This document shows positions 1 through 9,000 of a DNA stretch of 64,000 bases, piece after piece. A program made the translations under genes and the position numbers. Source of the DNA: a virus. Location of the stretch: the IMG/VR virus record IMGVR_UViG_3300025121_000045, positions 8,825 through 72,824 of that record, one strand, 5' to 3'. Position 1 is the first letter of the stretch. The number at the start of each line of letters is the position of its first letter. The notes beneath the pieces are model-generated. The model did no database searches and was not told the origin of the DNA. It was given only the letters and a program-made list of their open reading frames with translations.

Positions 1-28
1 AACGTTTATTTGTCATAACAACATTCAA

Positions 29-271
29 TTGAGATTGATTATGTGGCATGATTTAAAACGTGTTGCAGAAGAGAAGTTTCTGGACACATCGGCTTTTGAA
101 AAGTTTGCGATGGAACTGGAAAATGTATCTCGATACAGCATTTATAATTACCAGGTGAGCTCTTGGCATGTAGATGCTCTCGTAAAAGCGTACCGGGATC
201 AGAGACCCAATTACGAGGCCGAATATGACCGAGTAGCTCAGGAGCAAATTGCAAAACGACGTGCTTGGTAA
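29..271 (+). CDS. hypothetical protein
   Basis: 80-aa ORF on the main coding strand; start uncertain (ATG at 41 possible). Confidence 0.5.
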   Translation: MRLIMWHDLKRVAEEKFLDTSAFEKFAMELENVSRYSIYNYQVSSWHVDALVKAYRDQRPNYEAEYDRVAQEQIAKRRAW

Positions 272-291
272 TGTAAACTATTTAATAATAT

Positions 292-328
292 GGGGTAGCG
301 CCAACGCGGGAGAGTTGGACTTGGCTTT
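292..328 (+). pseudogene. orphan tRNA 5' half, truncated in the anticodon loop
   Basis: GGGGTAG-CG-CCAAC-GCGGGAGA-GTTGG-A-CTTGG-CT-TTT gives an acceptor 5' strand, a 5-bp D stem and an anticodon 5' strand; no CTACCCC acceptor 3' strand follows. Confidence 0.6.
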
Positions 329-360
329 TTGAACTTAATATTACTAATCCGTTTATACTA

Positions 361-392
361 AATATCTCCAAGTAGGTTCGATTGGAGATATT
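361..392 (+). promoter_or_regulatory. RBS-sequestering hairpin of the HNH gene
   Basis: perfect 11-bp inverted repeat AATATCTCCAA/TTGGAGATATT covering the GGAG Shine-Dalgarno and ending at ATG 393. Confidence 0.75.
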
Positions 393-1184
393 ATGAAAAC
401 ATGTGAGTCGTGTTCTAATGAACACCTGGGTAATTATGGTTCAGGAAGATTTTGTAATGTAAAATGTTCAAGGTCCTTTTCAACTAAAGCAAAAAGACTT
501 GAAATAAATTCAAAAGTTTCCAAAACTTTATCTGGAAATGAAAAGGATGTAGATCAGAAATTAAAATTACGAAATAGTCATTTAAAAAGACTTAGAGTGA
601 CAGAAAAAGTATATGAACATAAAATAAATGCAAATTGCTTTACAAGAGGCGGGAGCATTTATAATGTGGTGTGTAGAAATTGTTTATGTGATTTTGAAAC
701 AACTATAATAGAACAAGAGTTTTGTTCTAGTTCGTGTACCGCGACATTTAATCAAACTGGAAAAAGATTAAGTGACAAGCATAAAAATTCTATTTCGGAA
801 GCTCTAAAAGAAAAATATAAGGGTAAGATTTTTTCTGATGAGGAGAGGAAGATTTTATCTTTAGCAGTTGGATCTTACACAAAGGGTAAATTCAAAAGCG
901 GTCACATTAATTCTATATGGGATGGTTCCTCTAGAACACGATTAAAAATCTTGAAAAGATTAAATTGTAGTACAGTTTGTGTTTCGTGTGGTTGGGATAA
1001 AGATGAATGCGATGTTCATCATATAAGGGGAAGAAAAATAGAAAACCCACATGCACATTCCAATTTGATTTTACTATGCCCAAACTGTCATAGATTAGTA
1101 CATAAAGGTAAACTGTCTCTATTAGGTCTTAAAACATTAGAAGATTTGTTTCCTTCAAATTGGAAAGATATGTATTTTGGATAA
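393..1184 (+). CDS. HNH homing endonuclease with Zn-ribbon/NUMOD-like DNA-binding repeats
   Basis: C-terminal CVSCG..DVHHI..SNLILLCPNCHRLVH; multiple CxxC motifs. Confidence 0.85.
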   Translation: MKTCESCSNEHLGNYGSGRFCNVKCSRSFSTKAKRLEINSKVSKTLSGNEKDVDQKLKLRNSHLKRLRVTEKVYEHKINANCFTRGGSIYNVVCRNCLCDFETTIIEQEFCSSSCTATFNQTGKRLSDKHKNSISEALKEKYKGKIFSDEERKILSLAVGSYTKGKFKSGHINSIWDGSSRTRLKILKRLNCSTVCVSCGWDKDECDVHHIRGRKIENPHAHSNLILLCPNCHRLVHKGKLSLLGLKTLEDLFPSNWKDMYFG

Positions 1185-1185
1185 G

Positions 1186-1209
1186 TGGTGGAGGCTTCGG
1201 CCTCCACCA
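1186..1209 (+). other. stable C(UUCG)G hairpin (mRNA stabiliser/processing element)
   Basis: TGGTGGAGGC-TTCG-GCCTCCACCA, 10-bp perfect stem, no U-tract, directly followed by an AGGAG RBS. Confidence 0.6.
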
Positions 1210-1218
1210 GGAGTAAGT

Positions 1219-1449
1219 ATGAAAATCAAGGTTGACGACAAAGTTGCTCTAAAACGTGACATTTACAGGACCTCTCACATTACGAGAGAGGTCGAGCTTT
1301 ATGCCTCAAAGGGTGAGACAGGGTCTGTAGAAAATGTATTTCCGAGTTCAGGGTCGGGACATATGTCCAAAGATGTAAGGTGGAATGCAAAAGTACGAAT
1401 TGGTAATGTCTTGAAAACTTTTCGTGTTACAAGCTTAGAGGTTGTTTAG
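1219..1449 (+). CDS. hypothetical protein (SH3-like beta pattern)
   Basis: AGGAG RBS upstream of ATG 1219; MKIKVDDKV...GETGSV pattern. Confidence 0.6.
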   Translation: MKIKVDDKVALKRDIYRTSHITREVELYASKGETGSVENVFPSSGSGHMSKDVRWNAKVRIGNVLKTFRVTSLEVV

Positions 1450-1462
1450 GTTTTAGAAAATT

Positions 1463-1536
1463 GGGTCCATAATTCAATGGAAGAATCTCCGGCTTTTAAC
1501 CGGATTACCTCGGATCAATACCGAGTGGACCCACCA
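1463..1536 (+). tRNA. tRNA-Lys(UUU)
   Basis: full cloverleaf GGGTCCA/TGGACCC, anticodon arm TCCGG-CTTTTAA-CCGGA, T loop ATCAATA, encoded CCA. Confidence 0.9.
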
Positions 1537-1543
1537 AATTAAT

Positions 1544-1623
1544 GGGGTTGTAGCCTAGAGGCCAGGCATCTGACTCTTAATCAGCGGCGTAAGCCAACGC
1601 AGGTTCGAATCCTGCCAGCCCCA
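1544..1623 (+). tRNA. tRNA-Lys(CUU) with long variable arm
   Basis: GGGGTTG/CAGCCCC, CTGA-CTCTTAA-TCAG, V arm GGC-GTAA-GCC, T loop TTCGAAT; ends ACTA (CCA not encoded). Confidence 0.85.
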
Positions 1624-1713
1624 CTAAAAAGATACAAAAAGTATCTGAGAAAAGAGACTAAGTAATCGTTACTATGATGTGAACGTGACATAAACCAAAA
1701 CACGGAGCGCATC

Positions 1714-1926
1714 ATGAACGGCATTAAGGTTGGCTACCGGGCGAGTGGTAAGAAAATTCAGGATTATGCAATCATCCTGTTTTCAATGTTGTTTGTGCAG
1801 GAGTTCGGTATGACAGCCGGACTGGTATTTGGTGGAATGTGTGTGATCCTTGTGTGTGTTGTATATTACCAACTCGGCAAAGAACACAATCCGTTCCGTG
1901 ATATGAAACGTAAACTGACTCGATGA
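1714..1926 (+). CDS. small membrane protein
   Basis: GGAG RBS; two hydrophobic segments. Confidence 0.6.
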   Translation: MNGIKVGYRASGKKIQDYAIILFSMLFVQEFGMTAGLVFGGMCVILVCVVYYQLGKEHNPFRDMKRKLTR

Positions 1927-1931
1927 AATAT

Positions 1932-2015
1932 GGGTGTGTTGAGCAGGTGATGGGCTCATCTGGCTGTAAACCAGACTCTTCGGACGTGTAGGTTTGATTC
2001 CTTCCGCACCCACCA
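1932..2015 (+). tRNA. tRNA-Tyr(GUA)
   Basis: GGGTGTG/CGCACCC, TCTGG-CTGTAAA-CCAGA, long V arm, T loop TTTGATT, CCA. Confidence 0.88.
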
Positions 2016-2268
2016 ATTTTAATGTTTAAGAGGAGTATTGTGGAAGTTCCATACACTGGGAAATGTGCAAAAGAGCAGGAAAAGCGCCGTCGCAGGCTGT
2101 ATGCGGATACTCCTCGGCGCTTTGTTTCTGGAAAGAAAAACCTCGGTGCAAAGGGGCTTTGAATCCTTGCCTCTGAAAAAGAGGTAGAAAAAATTGCTCT
2201 TCAGGATCTTAATAACATAGATCTTGATTAACGAAAGGCTTTTGGTTATTGTTTAGTATAGTAACGAT

Positions 2269-2343
2269 GGCTCCGTGGTATAAAGAATGTGCACCGATCT
2301 TCTAAATCGGATTATAAAGGTTTGAGTCCTTTCGGAGTCACCA
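2269..2343 (+). tRNA. tRNA-Arg(UCU)
   Basis: GGCTCCG/CGGAGTC, CCGAT-CTTCTAA-ATCGG, T loop TTTGAGT, CCA. Confidence 0.85.
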
Positions 2344-2350
2344 GCAAGGA

Positions 2351-2416
2351 GCACGATTTAGAGAAAGCTATAGATTTTTCTAAATCGGTCGGTAGAAGGC
2401 CGACGCAACACGGTGC
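2351..2416 (+). other. structured inter-tRNA element (two hairpins in a closing stem)
   Basis: CGATTTAGAGAAA/TTTTTCTAAATCG, GTCGGT/GCCGAC, GCAC/GTGC. Confidence 0.4.
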
Positions 2417-2440
2417 GATAATTCGTGGAATCTTTTAAAT

Positions 2441-2517
2441 GCGCTTGTAGCTCAATTGGATAGAGTACTGGTCTTCTAAACCGGGGGTTGCAGGTTCGAA
2501 ACCTGCCAGGCGCACCA
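2441..2517 (+). tRNA. tRNA-Arg(UCU)
   Basis: GCGCTTG/CAGGCGC, CTGGT-CTTCTAA-ACCGG, TTCGAAA, CCA. Confidence 0.92.
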
Positions 2518-2518
2518 T

Positions 2519-2677
2519 ATAGCAGAAAAAGGCGAAGTACAAGCTGGAGGAGTTGAAGTTCATTGGCGGTTTAGGTTATGTTTATTACGCTGGCGTTAAC
2601 CGACGTGTAATAAATGGGTTCGAATCCCTTGCTAGGTCGCAAGCCCAGCAAATGCCGCTTCAACGAATCACTGCTAT
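2519..2677 (+). ncRNA. structured ncRNA with a T loop, candidate Y RNA (YrlA-like)
   Basis: ends pair (ATAGCAG/CTGCTAT; GTTGAAG/CTTCAAC); internal TTTATTAC/GTAATAAA, GGG-TTCGAAT-CCC and TTGCT/AGCAA; GGCGAAG near the 5' end. Confidence 0.55.
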
Positions 2678-2709
2678 TTTGATTTTAAAAATCAAGTTGT
2701 GTAATATGT

Positions 2710-2784
2710 GGCCGAGTATATCAAAGGAAGATGGCCTCTCTTACAAAGAGGAGGTAGCGGGATCAATACCCGCCTCGGCTACCA
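2710..2784 (+). tRNA. tRNA-Val(UAC)
   Basis: GGCCGAG/CTCGGCT, CCTCT-CTTACAA-AGAGG, T loop ATCAATA, CCA. Confidence 0.88.
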
Positions 2785-2787
2785 AAT

Positions 2788-2822
2788 AGGCTACAGAAGT
2801 TCGATTCTTCTATCGCCTACCA
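2788..2822 (+). pseudogene. tRNA remnant / minihelix (T arm + acceptor end + CCA)
   Basis: AGGC..AGAAG-TTCGATT-CTTCT-ATCGCCT-ACCA; D and anticodon arms absent. Confidence 0.6.
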
Positions 2823-2839
2823 AGTTTATTTTAGTTTAT

Positions 2840-2916
2840 CCGACCGTCATCCAATCCGGTTAAGATGCCGTGCTGATAACGCGGTCATGGAGATTCAAAT
2901 TCTCCCGGTCGGACCA
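2840..2916 (+). tRNA. tRNA-Ile(GAU)
   Basis: CCGACCG/CGGTCGG, CCGTG-CTGATAA-CGCGG, TTCAAAT, CCA. Confidence 0.88.
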
Positions 2917-2937
2917 ATGTCTGCTGTAATAATAAAA

Positions 2938-3516
2938 ATGGGGTCTCGAAAACATATTAAAGAAGCCTTAGTTGAAGCTATGGGCGGAAAATGCTCTGTT
3001 TGTGGCTATAATAATACTTTAGAAGCTTTATGTTTTCATCATGTTGACCCAAAACAAAAAACTTTCAATTTTGGGTCTTATCATGTTTTGAATTTTACGA
3101 AATTCAAAGAAGAGATGTTAAAGTGTGTTCTCTTATGTTGTAGATGTCATTCAGAAATACATTCTGGTTATATTCCGCAAGAAAAGGTATTAGAAATATA
3201 TAAGCCGGAAATTTATAAAAATATTGTATTGCAAGAACGTAAAATAGTCAGAAACTGTCCTATAATTAATTGTAGAATATGTGATACTGAATTTCAAACT
3301 ACTAGTAATGGACAAAAATATTGTAGTAATAAATGCAGCTCTATATCCAGTAGAAAATTTGAAATTTCAAAAGAAAAATTAGAAGGGCTTGTGAATACTA
3401 AACCCTTAATAAAGATAGGTAACATGTTTGGTGTTTCAGAAGCAGCAATACGTAAAAAGTGCGAGGTTTATGGTATTCTTTACAAGAAACGAGACTTGAA
3501 TAAAACACAAACATAA
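2938..3516 (+). CDS. HNH homing endonuclease with C-terminal HTH
   Basis: CSVCGY..LCFHHVDP..LLCCRCHSEIH; C-terminal IGNMFGVSEAAIRKKC; start moved to the ATG downstream of tRNA-Ile. Confidence 0.85.
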   Translation: MGSRKHIKEALVEAMGGKCSVCGYNNTLEALCFHHVDPKQKTFNFGSYHVLNFTKFKEEMLKCVLLCCRCHSEIHSGYIPQEKVLEIYKPEIYKNIVLQERKIVRNCPIINCRICDTEFQTTSNGQKYCSNKCSSISSRKFEISKEKLEGLVNTKPLIKIGNMFGVSEAAIRKKCEVYGILYKKRDLNKTQT

Positions 3517-3521
3517 AAATC

Positions 3522-3549
3522 AAAGGTTCAACTCCTTCTCGTCGCACCA
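3522..3549 (+). pseudogene. 3' remnant of a tRNA-Ile-like gene
   Basis: AAAGG-TTCAACT-CCTTC-TCGTCGC-ACCA resembles the 3' end of the tRNA-Ile at 4443-4520. Confidence 0.6.
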
Positions 3550-3556
3550 AGATTTA

Positions 3557-3603
3557 CGACATAAAGGGTTTAGAGTTGACCTTATGTCGATTATAACAAC
3601 TCT
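3557..3603 (+). ncRNA. H-type pseudoknot element 1 upstream of a tRNA
   Basis: S1 CGACATAA/TTATGTCG, S2 AGAGTTG/CAACTCT, then TT and tRNA G+1. Confidence 0.65.
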
Positions 3604-3605
3604 TT

Positions 3606-3679
3606 GGGTCCATAGTTCAATGGTAGAACATCTGGCTCTTAACCAGACTACGAAAGTTCGATTCTTTCTGGACCCACCA
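3606..3679 (+). tRNA. tRNA-Lys(CUU)
   Basis: GGGTCCA/TGGACCC, TCTGG-CTCTTAA-CCAGA, TTCGATT, CCA. Confidence 0.92.
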
Positions 3680-3700
3680 ATGTTTTTAATGTGGTAATGA

Positions 3701-4438
3701 ATGGTTTGTATAAAGTGTGGGTTAAATTTCCCTCATCTCTTGATGATAAAAGGTAGACAAGAAGATTTAAGTAATAGGGTATATTGTTTATCTTGTTGTC
3801 CTTTTGGTATTAAAAATATTAGAGATTTCGTAGATCCTTTAAATGAAGAAACAGAAGTTGAAATAGATTTTAGAGGAACATTTAAACGAGCTTTAGTAAT
3901 AGCTATGGGTAACAAATGTGCCATATGTGGTTACAAGGCTACAATACAAGCTTTATGTATTCATCATATAGATCCGTCCAAGAAAACATTTAGTTTTGGA
4001 TCCTATAATGTGTTGAATTTCGAAAAATATAACTTGGAGATGAAAAATTGTTTGTTATTATGTCTTAATTGTCATTCAGAAATACATTCTAAACATATCC
4101 CAGAAGAAAAAGTTTTAGAAGTGTATAAGCCAGAGTTGTATAAAACTTTGGTCGCTAAGAAAAGACTTTTAAAAAAGGTTTACCCTATAGTAGATTGCAA
4201 AGTTTGTAATAAACAATATCAACCTTCTACGGGAAACCAAAAGTATTGTTCTAATGAATGTCAAAGTATCGGTAAGAAGAAGTTTGACATAACAAAAATA
4301 AAATTGGAACTCTTAATAAGAGAGAAACACCCTGTAGAAATAGGGAAGTTATTTAATGTATCAGAAGCAAGTGTAAGGAAAAGATGCGAGAAATATGGAA
4401 TTTCATATAAAAAGAAATACATGAAAGTCAGAAATTAG
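3701..4438 (+). CDS. HNH homing endonuclease, paralog of 2938-3516
   Basis: CAICGY..LCIHHIDP..LLCLNCHSEIH; same C-terminal HTH-like tail. Confidence 0.85.
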   Translation: MVCIKCGLNFPHLLMIKGRQEDLSNRVYCLSCCPFGIKNIRDFVDPLNEETEVEIDFRGTFKRALVIAMGNKCAICGYKATIQALCIHHIDPSKKTFSFGSYNVLNFEKYNLEMKNCLLLCLNCHSEIHSKHIPEEKVLEVYKPELYKTLVAKKRLLKKVYPIVDCKVCNKQYQPSTGNQKYCSNECQSIGKKKFDITKIKLELLIREKHPVEIGKLFNVSEASVRKRCEKYGISYKKKYMKVRN

Positions 4439-4442
4439 ATAT

Positions 4443-4520
4443 GTGACGGTGGCCAAGTCTGGTTAAGGCTCTGTGCTGATAACGCAGAAACCGGAGGTTC
4501 AAATCCTCCCCGTCACACCA
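4443..4520 (+). tRNA. tRNA-Ile(GAU)
   Basis: GTGACGG/CCGTCAC, CTGTG-CTGATAA-CGCAG, TTCAAAT, CCA. Confidence 0.9.
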
Positions 4521-4527
4521 AGTTTTA

Positions 4528-4573
4528 GACGTACAAGGTTTAGGGTTGACTGTACGTTGAATATAACAACCCT
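4528..4573 (+). ncRNA. H-type pseudoknot element 2
   Basis: S1 GACGTACA/TGTACGTT, S2 AGGGTTG/CAACCCT, then TT and tRNA G+1. Confidence 0.65.
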
Positions 4574-4575
4574 TT

Positions 4576-4652
4576 GGGCAGGTAGTTCAACAGATTAGAA
4601 TGTCGATCTCTTAAATCGAAAGATGTGGGTTTGACTCCCACCCAGCCCACCA
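4576..4652 (+). tRNA. tRNA-Lys(CUU)
   Basis: GGGCAGG/CCAGCCC (one mismatch), TCGAT-CTCTTAA-ATCGA, T loop TTTGACT, CCA. Confidence 0.85.
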
Positions 4653-4656
4653 AGTA

Positions 4657-5058
4657 TTGGAGTTTAGAGTGTTATTACATAGAAGCACAGTAGATGCATG
4701 TATTAAAGCCTTAGAGGCTTATAGTGAATCTTTAAAGGGTGTTGAAAGAGATCATATTATAGGGTTGATATGTGAGCTAGAAGGAGAAGCTTCTAACATG
4801 GGTCATATATCTTATGATCCTACGTATCCAGATTTTGTGGAAACAAAATGGGGTTATGAAGTTAGTTTGGACACGGTAGGGCCAAACGTTGTTCAAGTAA
4901 TGAAATTAATAAGAGAAACAGTTGGTTTAGAACTACAAAAGCTACAGGCAATGATACGTAGTGTACCCGCAATTCTTTTATCCGAAATGAGTAAAGAAGA
5001 CGCGGAATGTATAAAGCAAAAGTTTGAAGCTGTTGGGGCTACAGTATCTTTTAAGTGA
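4657..5058 (+). CDS. protein with a C-terminal ribosomal protein bL12 (L7/L12) CTD
   Basis: YEVSLDTVGPNVVQVMKLIRETVGLEL..VPAILLSEMSKEDAECIKQKFEAVGATVSFK matches the bL12 C-terminal domain pattern. Confidence 0.75.
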   Translation: MEFRVLLHRSTVDACIKALEAYSESLKGVERDHIIGLICELEGEASNMGHISYDPTYPDFVETKWGYEVSLDTVGPNVVQVMKLIRETVGLELQKLQAMIRSVPAILLSEMSKEDAECIKQKFEAVGATVSFK

Positions 5059-5117
5059 GTCCATATTCCATCTAAATAATGGATCTTTTGTTCCGTGTAT
5101 ATAACATGGAGGACGTT

Positions 5118-5279
5118 ATGGAAGAAAAAGCTAGATTGGTATGGTGTAAAGGTACTTGGCCAGAAGACAATTATGAGGATTTTAAGGTTTTCCAGGTTCG
5201 TCCAGATGAAACTGACGAAGATGCCTTTAAACGGGCAGAGGAAGCGTATAGCGTAGAGAATGAGTTTTATATTAAGTAA
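5118..5279 (+). CDS. small acidic hypothetical protein
   Basis: GGAGG RBS before ATG 5118. Confidence 0.55.
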   Translation: MEEKARLVWCKGTWPEDNYEDFKVFQVRPDETDEDAFKRAEEAYSVENEFYIK

Positions 5280-5284
5280 TATCT

Positions 5285-5369
5285 GGGGTCGTGGTATATC
5301 GGCTGTACACCGGACTTTTAATCCGTGACCGAAAGGTCTAGGTAGGTTCGACTCCTACCGGCCCAACCA
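5285..5369 (+). tRNA. tRNA-Lys(UUU) with long variable arm
   Basis: GGGGTCG/CGGCCCA, CGGA-CTTTTAA-TCCG, V arm GACC-GAAA-GGTC, TTCGACT, CCA. Confidence 0.85.
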
Positions 5370-5378
5370 TGTTAATTT

Positions 5379-5454
5379 GGGTCCTTAGCTCAGCAGGTAG
5401 AGCATCTGGCTTTTAACCAGAGGGTGCCCGGATCAAGACCGGGAGGACCCACCA
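5379..5454 (+). tRNA. tRNA-Lys(UUU)
   Basis: GGGTCCT/AGGACCC, TCTGG-CTTTTAA-CCAGA, T loop ATCAAGA, CCA. Confidence 0.92.
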
Positions 5455-5490
5455 AACTTGTCTTATGTTATTTTTGCACTAATGTTTTTG

Positions 5491-5528
5491 TATAAATCCT
5501 CATATGTAAATTAATTTGAGGATTTATA
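5491..5528 (+). promoter_or_regulatory. RBS-sequestering hairpin of the HNH gene
   Basis: TATAAATCCTCA/TGAGGATTTATA perfect 12-bp stem covering GAGGA and the A of ATG 5528. Confidence 0.75.
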
Positions 5529-6271
5529 TGAGAATTAGAACAAGTCCTATATGGGATCTTCCAAAAGAAGAGTTTGAGTCTTTAGTAGCAAAGAGTGAAA
5601 CTTTTACAGCAATATTAGCTCATGTTGGATTACGAAATATCGGCCATAATTGGAAAACTCTAAGAACCCGACTTTTAGAAGATGGAATAGACTTTAGTCA
5701 TATAGGTACTGGTCGTACTTGGGCAAAAGGTAAATTTTTTAGAAGAGCTTCAAATGAAGAAGTTTTTGTAAAAGGTCCTGGTTACGGCAAAAGTCATATA
5801 AAAGAAAGAATAATAAAAGAAAACCTATTATCATATATATGTGCTAATTGTAAACTAGAGCCAGTTTGGAATGGTGAAAAATTAGTTTTGCATTTAGACC
5901 ATATTAACGGTGACGGAACTGATGACAGATTAGAGAATTTAAGATTTTTATGTCCTAACTGTCACAGTCAAACAAAAACTTATACAGGTAGGAATAAAAT
6001 ACTAGGAAGGCATGTTCCAAAATATTGTATAGATTGTAATAAACAGGTATCTCATAATCAATATGATAGATGTTTTTTATGTTCTCAAAAATGGAGAGGT
6101 TTAACACAGAGAAAATTTGACCCCTCAAAAGAGGAGTTAGAAAATTTAGTAAAGTCTAATTCTATAATAGACATAGGATTGATGTTTAATGTGTCTGAAG
6201 CTGCTGTAAGGAAAAGATGTGAGCTTTTAGGCATACTGTATAAGAAAAAAGATTTAAAAATGCGCCTCTAG
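5528..6271 (+). CDS. HNH homing endonuclease
   Basis: CANC..LHLDHINGDGTDDRLENLRFLCPNCHSQT; HTH tail; the stop codon lies inside the next tRNA. Confidence 0.9.
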   Translation: MRIRTSPIWDLPKEEFESLVAKSETFTAILAHVGLRNIGHNWKTLRTRLLEDGIDFSHIGTGRTWAKGKFFRRASNEEVFVKGPGYGKSHIKERIIKENLLSYICANCKLEPVWNGEKLVLHLDHINGDGTDDRLENLRFLCPNCHSQTKTYTGRNKILGRHVPKYCIDCNKQVSHNQYDRCFLCSQKWRGLTQRKFDPSKEELENLVKSNSIIDIGLMFNVSEAAVRKRCELLGILYKKKDLKMRL

Positions 6272-6337
6272 CTCAACGGATAGAGCAAGGGTTTACGAAG
6301 CCCAAGACGGTGAGTTCAATTCTCCCGAGGCGCTCCA
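6262..6337 (+). tRNA. tRNA-Arg(ACG)
   Basis: GCGCCTC/GAGGCGC, GGGT-TTACGAA-GCCC, TTCAATT, CCA. Confidence 0.85.
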
Positions 6338-6361
6338 GACGATTATATTAAGACCTCGTCC

Positions 6362-6409
6362 TAACATCAGAACTATAAGGTTGGCCTGATGTTAAGTATT
6401 TTCAACTTT
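6362..6409 (+). ncRNA. H-type pseudoknot element 3
   Basis: S1 TAACATCAG/CTGATGTTA, S2 AAGGTTG/CAACTTT, then TT and tRNA G+1. Confidence 0.6.
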
Positions 6410-6411
6410 TT

Positions 6412-6486
6412 GGACCATTAGCTCATCGGACAGAGCAACTGCCTTCGAAGCAGAAGAGGGGTGTTCAATTCACCCATGGTCCTCCA
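6412..6486 (+). tRNA. tRNA-Arg(UCG)
   Basis: GGACCAT/ATGGTCC, CTGC-CTTCGAA-GCAG, TTCAATT, CCA. Confidence 0.88.
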
Positions 6487-6498
6487 ATAATATTCAAT

Positions 6499-6573
6499 AG
6501 GGGTCAGCGTAGGTTGTGCCTAAAGGACTCCAAATCCTTTTAGCGATGGGTTCAAATCCCTCGGCCCCTGCCA
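6499..6573 (+). tRNA. tRNA-Trp(CCA), atypical D arm
   Basis: AGGGGTC/GGCCCCT, AAGGA-CTCCAAA-TCCTT, TTCAAAT, G73-CCA; D arm TAGG-TTGTG-CCTA. Confidence 0.75.
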
Positions 6574-6703
6574 TTTAATCTCTTTTCTAATCTCTTCCTT
6601 TAAATTCTTCAATAAATTCTCTACCTTTTAATACCTTATTTTCGTTTAGGTGTAAACCTTTCACCAGGAATTTTCCGATGAAAGTCTATCAGATTTTGAA
6701 AGG

Positions 6704-7003
6704 ATGCTAATGTACCAGATTCCATCTCATTCATCTGACCAAGAGCAGAGTAAAAATCCTCGAACAGCTAAATATAAGTGTGCTCGAGTTTACCTCAATG
6801 GGGACATTATTAGGTCATATTGGGACGATGGCATTGAAGATTGGGTAGAATACAATTCTACCTTTAGGTTTGGGAACGCTCTGTTTGTTAACGGAGAATG
6901 TGTCCGAAATGGTTATCTCTCAGAAGACAGATGTAAAGAGTTAGAGATTCAATTTCGTACAGAATTAGGTCTCCTAACAGAACACATCTTTTCCGTAAGC
7001 TGA
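6704..7003 (+). CDS. hypothetical protein
   Basis: 99-aa ORF with AAGG RBS. Confidence 0.55.
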   Translation: MLMYQIPSHSSDQEQSKNPRTAKYKCARVYLNGDIIRSYWDDGIEDWVEYNSTFRFGNALFVNGECVRNGYLSEDRCKELEIQFRTELGLLTEHIFSVS

Positions 7004-7029
7004 GAGTTCGAATCTTCCTGGACCCGTCA
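7002..7029 (+). pseudogene. degenerate tRNA 3' remnant (Lys-like end)
   Basis: GAGAG-TTCGAAT-CTTCC-TGGACCC; same acceptor 3' strand as the tRNA-Lys genes at 1463 and 3606. Confidence 0.5.
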
Positions 7030-7089
7030 ATATATTCTATAAAGTTTTAATAAAATATTGTCTAAATCTTAGACATAAGGATCTCTTAT

Positions 7090-7437
7090 ATGAATTTAAT
7101 TTCTAAAGAAATAAAACAGTTATCACAAGTTATTAAGAATTCTAATCACACAAAGGTTTCATCATGGATGCGTGAACCTGGTCCTGATCCGTATTGTTGG
7201 ATGAGGATTATTGTAGGAGGGAATCCGAAATCTTTAGAAGATAGGGTGGCTTTTTGTGAAAAAAGCCCAAGAATTAGGGTAGCCCCTTTTACAACACATT
7301 CTGAAGAAAGTGACAAGTGGAAATTTGGACCAAAAGGCGGCTATGATGATGCCGAAAATTTAGAGTGGTGTGATATAGAGCTTAAAAAATTAGGTTATGT
7401 TATTACGGATACCACTATACCAGATGAGTGTAGTTAA
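7090..7437 (+). CDS. hypothetical protein
   Basis: 115-aa ORF with AAGGA RBS. Confidence 0.6.
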
Positions 7438-7471
7438 GAATCCATATTGTGTGTCACTACTTGAGGTAGAC

Positions 7472-8737
7472 ATGTTAGATGTACGTTTCGTTGTAGAACA
7501 TACAGATAAGATTATAGAGAATCTTAGAAAAAGACATACAGATTTTAATTTAACTCATCTCCTGAACCTCTTTAGTCTTCATAAAAACACCCTTCACAAG
7601 TTAGAGATGCTCAAAACTGACCGTAACAGGTTAGCTTCCGAGATAGGCAGACTTAAAATACAGAAACAAGACACGACTATTCTTCAAGAACATGCTAGAG
7701 AATTAGGAAACGACATCAAGTCTTTTGAGATTGACTGTAAAGACTTGGCGGATAGGCTACATTCTCAAGTTTTGTTACTGCCTAATCTATTGCAAGACAC
7801 CGTGCCAGACGGCGTTGACGCTAACGACAATGTGTTAGTACGTACTTGGAATACCCCTACAGCATTTACCTTTACTCCAAAGGCCCACAACGAGATTGGG
7901 GAGGGTTTAGGTATTATAGATTTCCAAAGAGCGGCCAAGATTTCTGGGTCCCGGTTTGCCGTCCTACGAGGAGCGGGAGCTGCTCTAGAACGAGCTTTGA
8001 TAAATTTATTCTTAGATACACATATAAGACACGGGTACCAAGAAGTTATGGTTCCATATCTTGTCAATGCCACTACTATGACAGGTACAGGTCAACTCCC
8101 AAAATTTGAGGAAGACTTATTCAAAATACAAGGATCTGACCTGTACCTAATACCGACTGCAGAGGTCCCGGTCACCAATCTACATGCAGGAGAGATTTTA
8201 GCAGAAGATGGCCTACCCCTCAGGTATTGTGCTTTTACCCCATGTTTTAGAGCAGAAGCCGGTTCGCATGGACGCGATGTAAAAGGTTTGATCCGTCAAC
8301 ATCAATTCCATAAGGTAGAGCTGGTACAGTTTGCACATCCAGACCAATCTCGAAATATTCATGAAGAATTAGTTAGGTATGTTGAGTGTTTGTTAGAGCT
8401 GCTTCAACTACCATACAGGACTATGCATTTATGTGCGGGTGATACAGGCAATGGGTCTTCTAGGACATACGACATAGAAGTATGGATGCCTGGACAGAAT
8501 CAGTATAGGGAGATATCCTCTTGTTCTAATTTTCTAGATTATCAGGCACGTAGAGCCAATATCAGATTTAGACCTAAAGTCGGTGGTAAACCTAGATATG
8601 TACATACCCTGAATGCTTCTGGTTTGGCCATAGGCCGAACTATGGTGGCTATCTTAGAAAACTATCAACAAGAAGATGGGTCTGTCATAGTTCCAGAAGT
8701 TTTAAGACCTTATATGCATATGGATGTCATAAAATGA
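7472..8737 (+). CDS. serS: seryl-tRNA synthetase
   Basis: MLD.. start with GAGG RBS, N-terminal coiled coil, [16 protein letters not shown], motif 2 [37 protein letters not shown]. Confidence 0.97.
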
Positions 8738-9000
8738 CAGAAACAGAAAACTGGATTAAAGTGTTGTCAGAGGCCCCTTCGACTCAGATTGACCCGCTGA
8801 TAACAGCAAAGCTTAAAGACCTTCTTACAATACACCCGGTTCAAAGACCTGACATCCTGAGAAATATATTAGATGAATGCATATATGGAGCTTTAGCTAG
8901 TGGCTTTTCCATGACTACAATGGACATAGTCTGGAAATTGTCGATAGAAGACGCTTCCGAGATACATTCGGTATCGAGAGAAGAAATGTTATCCGAATAA
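8734..9000 (+). CDS. hypothetical protein
   Basis: ATGA overlap with the serS stop. Confidence 0.6.

Follow-up and report, generated by a model that had tools for sequence, protein, structure and literature searches.

Three short RNA elements of about 49 nt, here called M1, M2 and M3, lie in spacers between the transfer RNA (tRNA) genes of an uncultured phage, and every copy stops 2 nt short of the 5′ end of the next tRNA. They occur in a stretch of 64,000 nt, referred to as the window, that corresponds to bases 8825–72824 of the 72.8-kb viral contig IMGVR_UViG_3300025121_000045 of IMG/VR and whose first 7 kb hold an array of 14 tRNAs (ARAGORN) on the + strand. The three copies are homologous and strongly conserved, occupy a fixed position, and share a first stem (S1) whose strands covary. 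The element is a real, uncatalogued and lineage-restricted structured spacer, precisely placed before tRNA 5′ ends. In the reading favoured here, which carries a probability of about 0.4, it may act in cis as a folded plug of the polycistronic precursor tRNA (pre-tRNA), with a role in processing or protection.

All three copies have the same strand order, S1a-L1-S2a-L2-S1b-L3-S2b-TT, followed by the first nucleotide of a tRNA (G+1). S1 comprises 8–9 bp and the second stem (S2), between the hairpin loop and the 3′ tail, 7 bp, with connecting segments of 6–7 nt (L1), 2–3 nt (L2) and 7–8 nt (L3). An earlier note on this DNA, made from the letters alone, had given sequences, coordinates and distances for the three motifs, and all of these are present in the window. 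The elements and the linkers that precede them are:

3550–3556, + strand: AU-rich 7-nt linker AGATTTA between ...CACCA and M1, unpaired in folds
3557–3605, + strand: M1, with S1 3557–3564/3582–3589, L1 3565–3571, S2 3572–3578/3597–3603, L2 3579–3581, L3 3590–3596 and TT 3604–3605
4521–4527, + strand: M2 linker AGTTTTA, counterpart of 3550–3556
4527–4575, + strand: M2, with S1 4528–4535/4551–4558 (and a possible additional A-T pair, 4536/4550), S2 4542–4548/4567–4573, L3 4559–4566 and TT 4574–4575
6338–6361, + strand: 24-nt linker before M3, folded as a small 5-bp hairpin with an AU-rich loop
6362–6411, + strand: M3, with S1 6362–6370/6386–6394, S2 6377–6383/6403–6409 (one G-U pair), L3 6395–6402 and TT 6410–6411

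The placement of the element is uniform. The end of S2 is position −3 of the following tRNA in 3/3 copies, and these tRNAs are Lys(CTT), Lys(CTT) and Arg(TCG) by ARAGORN and Rfam, as the earlier note had read them. The distance from the encoded CCA end of the upstream tRNA to S1 is 7, 7 and 24 nt for M1, M2 and M3, respectively, and the spacers that hold the motif measure 55–56, 55 and 74 nt, compared with 7, 9 and 12 nt for the other three direct tRNA-tRNA junctions. Since a T is found at position −1 of every tRNA in the array, the TT is not specific to the motif. No open reading frame (ORF) of at least 50 aa lies within M1–M3, one − strand ORF ending at 3550 in the M1 linker, and the three elements carry no sigma-70-like promoter or terminator-like site. 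A promoter or terminator reading was accordingly rejected; the −35-like and −10-like hexamers inside the motif are just 10 bp apart.

S1 is well supported. Pairs were counted on a model-fitted alignment of the three copies (A4) and compared with 500 shuffles. Over the whole structure, 46/48 cells are paired and 8/16 pairs are changed on both sides, which was reached by 0/500 shuffles; slid controls gave 26–47% paired cells and 0–1 pairs changed on both sides. For S1 alone, 25/27 cells are paired and 6/9 pairs are compensatory (reached by 7/500 shuffles), which bears out the earlier claim that stem 1 differs between copies yet stays paired. Of 49 model positions (50 alignment columns), 25 are the same in all three copies. 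The alignment of M1 with M2 is ungapped and shows differences in 11/49 columns. Six of these differences fall into three compensated pairs, two in S1 (A-U to G-C, A-U to C-G) and one in S2 (A-U to G-C). Of the other five, two preserve or add a pair, one disrupts a terminal pair and two are in loops. Two G-U pairs would become A-C mismatches on the other strand, which favours an RNA of the + strand.

The third copy can be recovered from the other two. A covariance model (R1) built from M1 and M2 alone, with only S1 coded as pairs, scores M1 at 71.7 bits and M2 at 71.0 bits, and detects M3 with 28.1 bits (E 2.6e-4 in a search of both strands of the whole window), the next match having E 0.11. 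No further copy was detected in the window by R1 at E<0.1. A fast-filtered model scan of the whole contig returned M1 and M2 only, and a scan with a pattern for the S2 core matched the three copies only. A 10-mer common to M3 and positions 1725–1734 was set aside, as it lies inside an ORF and is within chance expectation.

By strand order and loop lengths, the predicted architecture is a generic H-type pseudoknot. L1 (6–7 nt) spans the 7-bp S2 and L3 (7–8 nt) spans the 8–9 bp S1, and such loop and stem lengths suit classical H-type knot geometry. The S2 strands are the most conserved stretches of the element, hold the same register in all copies, and keep both variable positions paired. Stacking energies in M1, M2 and M3 are −12.4, −13.8 and −14.2 kcal/mol for S1, and −11.8, −13.9 and −10.4 kcal/mol for S2. 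The pseudoknot, with the loop paired to the 3′ tail, is probable and unproven, because with three sequences the covariation of S2 does not go beyond chance. S2 alone is paired in 21/21 cells in one register and covaries at 2/7 pairs, which was reached by 116/500 shuffles; the covariation of stem 2 reported in the earlier note is therefore literally there, but is not statistically established. Furthermore, a 7–8 bp loop-tail helix arises in 7–20% of composition-preserving shuffles, because the loop is G/U-rich and the tail A/C/U-rich.

These figures bear on the possibility that only the S1 hairpin is real and that loop and tail match by chance or because both are conserved as single-stranded sequence, in which case the element would be a plain structured spacer that might insulate folds, cause pausing or give nucleases a point of entry. 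This possibility draws on the lack of significant S2 covariation, on the frequency of chance matches between loop and tail, and on single-sequence nested minimum free energy folds, in which M1 and M3 retain S1, with other inner pairs, and M2 adopts a competing fold. It is nevertheless unlikely, given the conservation, common register and maintained pairing of the S2 strands, the one compensatory M1-M2 pair in S2, and loop lengths that fit a knot. The RNAalifold consensus contains S1 only and leaves the loop and tail free.

A scan of the 62-nt leaders of 248 tRNAs (14 in the window, 234 in 30 other viral loci) placed the three copies in context. Leaders at or below −20 kcal/mol of stacking number 4/248, namely M1, M2, M3 and one in the locus L162, against 1/744 in shuffles. 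Loosely defined knots (S1 of at least 8, S2 of at least 7, G-U pairs allowed) are found 26 times contig-wide, compared with 10–18 times in shuffles. As loose knots are not rare, the signal is the homologous triple at one fixed place and not the knot itself.

The L162 leader, from an IMG/VR contig of 49 kb that is 12% complete, has the strongest score among the 248. At 630–676 it holds a lone H-type knot that ends 4 nt before a tRNA-Val, with an S1 of 8 bp, an S2 of 7 bp, an L2 of 2 nt and an L3 of 6 nt, and has no sequence in common with the motif. The search for relatives of this knot found none, nor a second copy in its own record, and it thus cannot be validated.

M1 and M2 sit in a duplicated unit that reads HNH-tRNA-Ile-M-tRNA-Lys. 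Between the two units, identity is 79% for the motif spacer, 66% for the HNH DNA, 72–77% for tRNA-Ile and 58% for tRNA-Lys. The spacer is the best-kept segment and its stem changes are compensated, which argues for selection on the fold. Judged by these identities, the structured spacer is under stronger constraint than the tRNAs it separates. The HNH-type ORFs and tRNAs around the three copies are:

2887–3516, + strand: HNH-type endonuclease paralogue 1, 51% identical to 3701–4438, without a Pfam match
3520–3549, + strand: 3′ fragment of tRNA-Ile (T arm, acceptor 3′ strand, CCA), upstream of M1
3606–3679, + strand: tRNA-Lys(CTT), downstream of M1 (ARAGORN; Rfam tRNA, 75.3 bits)
3701–4438, + strand: HNH-type endonuclease paralogue 2, with a weak Pfam HNH match
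4443–4520, + strand: tRNA-Ile(GAT), upstream of M2 (ARAGORN, Rfam)
4576–4652, + strand: tRNA-Lys(CTT), downstream of M2 (ARAGORN, Rfam)
5516–6271, + strand: HNH endonuclease paralogue 3 (Pfam HNH, E 1.5e-4)
6262–6337, + strand: tRNA-Arg(ACG), upstream of M3 (ARAGORN, Rfam)
6412–6486, + strand: tRNA-Arg(TCG), downstream of M3 (ARAGORN, Rfam)

The fragment at 3520–3549 is identical in 23/30 bases to the 3′ end of the tRNA-Ile at 4443–4520, and the stop codon of HNH paralogue 3 falls within the first 10 nt of the tRNA-Arg at 6262.

As a cis-acting plug, the three elements would be RNA structures inside one long pre-tRNA transcript. The 8–9 bp hairpin, its loop most likely paired with the 3′ tail, would form a compact H-type pseudoknot, and RNase P would cut at G+1 of the downstream tRNA. 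The RNA left upstream of this cut would end knot-UU-3′OH, and a tail of 2 nt would be too short a grip for 3′-to-5′ exonucleases, such that trimming could not reach back into the upstream tRNA. The upstream tRNA would be freed solely by an endonuclease cut in the AU-rich linker right after CCA, and the plug would be released as a discrete RNA of roughly 50–55 nt. In the E. coli model as described, RNase E cuts 1–3 nt past CCA, with RNase P responsible for the 5′ ends and exonucleases for trimming on the 3′ side (PMC2190699). Since the elements lie between a CCA-encoded tRNA 3′ end and a tRNA 5′ end, ordinary processing would excise an RNA of ~50 nt, and the release of such RNAs proposed in the earlier note is consistent with this position. 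The conserved RNA fold and its constant distance to the RNase P site are as far as the data go; that the elements are transcribed, that stem 2 pairs in vivo, that both cleavages occur and that the product resists exonucleases is what we infer. Among the functions that the earlier note had listed, an exonuclease block and a modulator of RNase P remain the most reasonable, as far as sequence can suggest.

Several points weigh against the plug. The protein of RNase P binds the single-stranded leader, and structure from position −3 should hinder it, which would make a plug costly and not helpful. Nor is there an evident gain from shielding a 3′ trailer. The element is absent from 11/14 ARAGORN tRNAs in the array, and the S2 statistics and the chance frequency of the loop-tail helix, given above, count here as well. 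No RNA run holding the tRNA-array stretch was found. The DNA runs that contain it are groundwater metagenomes; contigs from four of them carry the stretch with 0 differing letters, and there is thus no informative strain variation. Finally, no homolog of the motif was detected in any other searched genome. A need for the element beyond this lineage is therefore not indicated, and its support comes down to three paralogous copies. The earlier note had held that a failure to find covarying homologs would speak against its proposal, and outside this genome that is in effect the outcome. A covariance model, the check it had suggested, finds M3 from M1 and M2 within the genome and has no significant match in the 30 related viral records.

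These searches covered several collections, with exact degenerate patterns in the homolog scans and a covariance model on 30 related viral records. A cmscan of window positions 1–9000 against the 4227 families of Rfam 15 gave 23 matches at E<=1, all of them on tRNA genes or on their reverse strands or edges and none on the motif. The earlier impression that the motif belongs to no named family thus stands at this threshold, and no already described Rfam family was found to include it. Megablast of 3400–6700 against 50,697 phage records returned no match, and blastn of 3540–3625 returned three chance matches (E>=0.7). In IMG/VR, a pattern combining the S2 core with a tRNA start matched at least 111 stretches, and all matches listed looked like chance in coding DNA. 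A pattern for the 3′ part of M1 and M2 gave five chance matches, a signature of S2 plus L3 gave 36 matches, none with an S2 of 7 plus a placed S1, and the 5′ half of the tRNA-Lys gave 0 matches. Pattern scans of JGI metagenome contigs returned 0 matches and then 20 chance matches, and a scan of GTDB genomes returned 17 chance matches. A covariance model (R2) run on 30 HNH-related IMG/VR loci reached a best E of 1.8, and, on the whole records, a best E of 0.055 per record. No related locus was reached through a UvsX-like ORF, and none through an ORF resembling ribosomal L7/L12. A RecD-like helicase has at most 35% identity to any phage record. On these comparisons, the phage is without close kin in the searched collections. 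Among published titles and abstracts, no relevant description of a knot at phage tRNA leaders was found.

An alternative to the plug is that the excised knot is itself the product, a stable small RNA with a role in trans; it could, for example, be a decoy or sponge that occupies a nuclease or an RNA-binding defence protein of the host, type III antitoxin mimics included. Processing on both sides would, by position, free the knot with a closed 3′ end. There are three copies, the loop and tail letters are kept even in the diverged M3, the element is better conserved than the adjacent tRNAs, and phage-borne mimics of ToxI antitoxin RNA are known. On the other hand, the copies are not tandem repeats, the contig is without a ToxN gene, no Rfam family matches at E<=1, and the sequence of S1 varies between copies, which would be odd for one sequence-specific partner. 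A product acting in trans is unlikely, to about the same degree as the hairpin-only spacer. More speculative still is a tRNA array that would serve as a production line, in which RNase P would set the 3′ end two bases past the knot, in parallel to 3′-end formation at MALAT1/mascRNA, and the stable ~50-nt products would act in trans, for example as decoys against host RNA-targeting defence.

Type III antitoxin RNAs (ToxI) are pseudoknots of ~36–45 nt that form head-to-tail tandem repeats beside a ToxN-family gene and are excised by the toxin. The motif is like them in being a short, probably pseudoknotted RNA in several copies. As a member of the type III antitoxins (ToxI/CptI/TenpI) it was rejected, since the copies are 970 and 1,835 nt apart, tRNA-flanked and not in a tandem array; Tandem Repeats Finder reported only a 13-nt unit at 3500–3524 in window positions 1–9000. 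The ToxN family PF13958 has no match at E<=1 in the 72.8-kb contig, which represents ~16% of the genome; a decoy encoded by a phage would do without such a gene. The likeness to these antitoxins drawn in the earlier note is therefore not supported, given the absence of a tandem arrangement, the lack of a ToxN-family gene in the contig, and the variation of S1 between copies.

It is improbable that the element belongs instead to the HNH homing endonucleases, whether as a target at the DNA or cassette level, as a site for immunity or recombination, or as a 3′ element that stabilises the HNH message. This reading arises because 3/3 copies lie in the first tRNA-tRNA spacer past one of three paralogous HNH ORFs (the HNH ORF plus one tRNA or fragment). 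In unit 1, where just a fragment of the upstream tRNA is present, the message of the first HNH paralogue would end in M1 after the RNase P cut. However, an intact tRNA lies between the ORF and the motif in units 2 and 3, and 0/30 IMG/VR records with related HNH genes have a significant match (R2 E-values as above). Moreover, the stem letters vary while pairing holds, and the G-U pairs indicate RNA. The co-occurrence of M1 and M2 with HNH genes may merely reflect duplication of the whole unit.

The related HNH family is itself associated with tRNAs, which are present in 28/30 of its IMG/VR loci (L161–L190). Its genes are placed immediately ahead of tRNA genes: in the window, the distance from the HNH stop to a tRNA or tRNA fragment is 3, 4 and −10 nt. 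The frame stops −37 to +16 nt from the start of a same-strand tRNA in 17/30 of the related loci, where a few frames may be mis-set.

A self-cleaving ribozyme or ligand-sensing aptamer that would control 5′ maturation of the next tRNA is very improbable, for although compact knot-like folds are typical of small ribozymes and the smallest riboswitches and the distance to the tRNA is fixed, no Rfam ribozyme or riboswitch matches at E<=1, the unpaired positions are loosely conserved between M3 and M1/M2, a riboswitch within a tRNA array has no obvious logic, and nothing marks the ligand sensor that the earlier note had listed. HDV-like and theta ribozymes have a nested double pseudoknot, with a P3 hairpin between the 5′ strand of P2 and the 3′ strand of P1, and are placed after the tRNA; the motif was rejected as one of these, as its L2, at the site of P3, has only 2–3 nt and leaves no room for the hairpin.

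For the cis-acting plug, the nearest functional precedent is MALAT1. As described, an RNase P cut before a tRNA-like RNA leaves MALAT1 with a structure-protected 3′ end (PMC8457004, PMC13170383). Like the 3′ module described for MALAT1 and MEN-beta, the motif would be a compact tertiary structure directly 5′ of a tRNA-shaped RNase P substrate, and its placement is similar in that a stable structure stops a few nt before the RNase P site in 3/3 copies; the likeness is functional only. Unlike the motif, MALAT1 and MEN-beta are described as eukaryotic nuclear long non-coding RNAs that feature a U-A-U triple helix with an A-rich tract and, downstream, the tRNA-like mascRNA. The downstream partner of the motif is a real tRNA, and there is no homology.

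The upstream pseudoknot domain of TMV and the upstream pseudoknot of TYMV are H-type knots directly 5′ of a tRNA-shaped viral RNA, and the motif resembles them as a probable knot directly 5′ of a tRNA shape. These knots belong to the 3′ untranslated regions of plant RNA viruses, serve translation and replication, and have no functional tRNA after them that RNase P would mature. Among phages, the tRNA cluster of T4 includes RNAs C and D, small stable RNAs among tRNA genes that are freed by tRNA processing. They are larger than the motif, are not known as H-type knots, and have no fixed 2-nt abutment to tRNA 5′ ends; the comparison is one of description and not of sequence.

Exonuclease-resistant RNAs (xrRNAs) offer a further comparison. 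The class 3 xrRNA, of plant viruses, is described as ~45 nt long, with an apical loop that pairs with downstream sequence to form a compact pseudoknot that blocks the exonuclease (PMC12397905), and the motif is like it in size and in having a hairpin loop that probably pairs with downstream sequence. In the same description, class 3 xrRNAs have a T-loop hairpin (L2B) between the loop strand and the stem, place the 3′ pseudoknot strand directly after the stem, and block 5′-to-3′ decay (PMC12397905). The motif was rejected as a member of this class because it has just 2–3 nt between S2a and S1b, a 7–8 nt L3 after the stem, and no Rfam match. The coremin xrRNA (xrRNA-C) is given as a 4-bp hairpin with a YGAD (or YGNNAD) loop, a spacer of 8–10 nt and a second hairpin (PMC10520033). 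This was likewise rejected, as S1 of the motif has 8–9 bp with a loop of 15–17 nt and no second hairpin follows.

The contig that holds the array is 16% complete according to CheckV, which implies a genome of several hundred kb and thus a huge phage. Its GC content is 38%. Rfam adds one weak tRNA match at 6499–6570 to the 14 tRNAs of the array, and the remaining features of note are:

393–1184: HNH endonuclease ORF among the array tRNAs
4657–5058: ORF with a ribosomal L7/L12 C-terminal domain (Pfam, E 2.7e-15), in the array
7397–8737: seryl-tRNA synthetase (SerRS) ORF, just downstream of the array

In a word-indexed search of 5.8 billion proteins, the sole match of the L7/L12-like ORF was itself. 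The matches of the SerRS are bacterial-like. Two tRNAs of the array, at 1544–1624 (81 nt) and 5285–5369 (85 nt), are class II-shaped with long extra arms and carry the lysine anticodons CTT and TTT. They score 57.6 and 38.6 bits with Rfam, each lies 7–9 nt from a normal tRNA-Lys, and the one at 1544–1624 has no encoded CCA. Which amino acid these long-arm tRNAs accept is possibly an important question, in a phage that encodes its own SerRS.

Other parts of the array contain remnants of tRNAs. Fragments of tRNA 3′ ends (T arm plus acceptor 3′ strand) are found at 2785–2822, 3520–3549 and ~6990–7029, beside HNH or small ORFs, and look like scars of insertions into tRNA genes that brought a replacement 3′ end. 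The 97-nt spacer at 2344–2440, between two tRNA-Arg(TCT) genes, has a hairpin resembling the anticodon arm of the upstream tRNA and is probably another decayed tRNA fragment. A hairpin (AAATCCTCA ... TGAGGATTT) at 5494–5523 covers GAGGA just ahead of the start of the third HNH ORF and may act in translational occlusion of that ORF, as hairpins do in other phage homing endonuclease genes.

Descriptions of phage tRNA arrays usually stop at a list of the tRNA genes and pass over the DNA in between. The significance of what follows is limited, as the element is known to date from a single uncultured phage and its role is proposed from sequence. The strong constraint on the spacer and its exact distance to the RNase P site suggest that spacers can be functional RNAs themselves. 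A knot that sets the order of processing, or that stops exonucleases, would be a small and portable module for RNA stability or processing. Should the knot be set free as an active small RNA, tRNA arrays would harbour phage non-coding RNAs that have so far been hidden.

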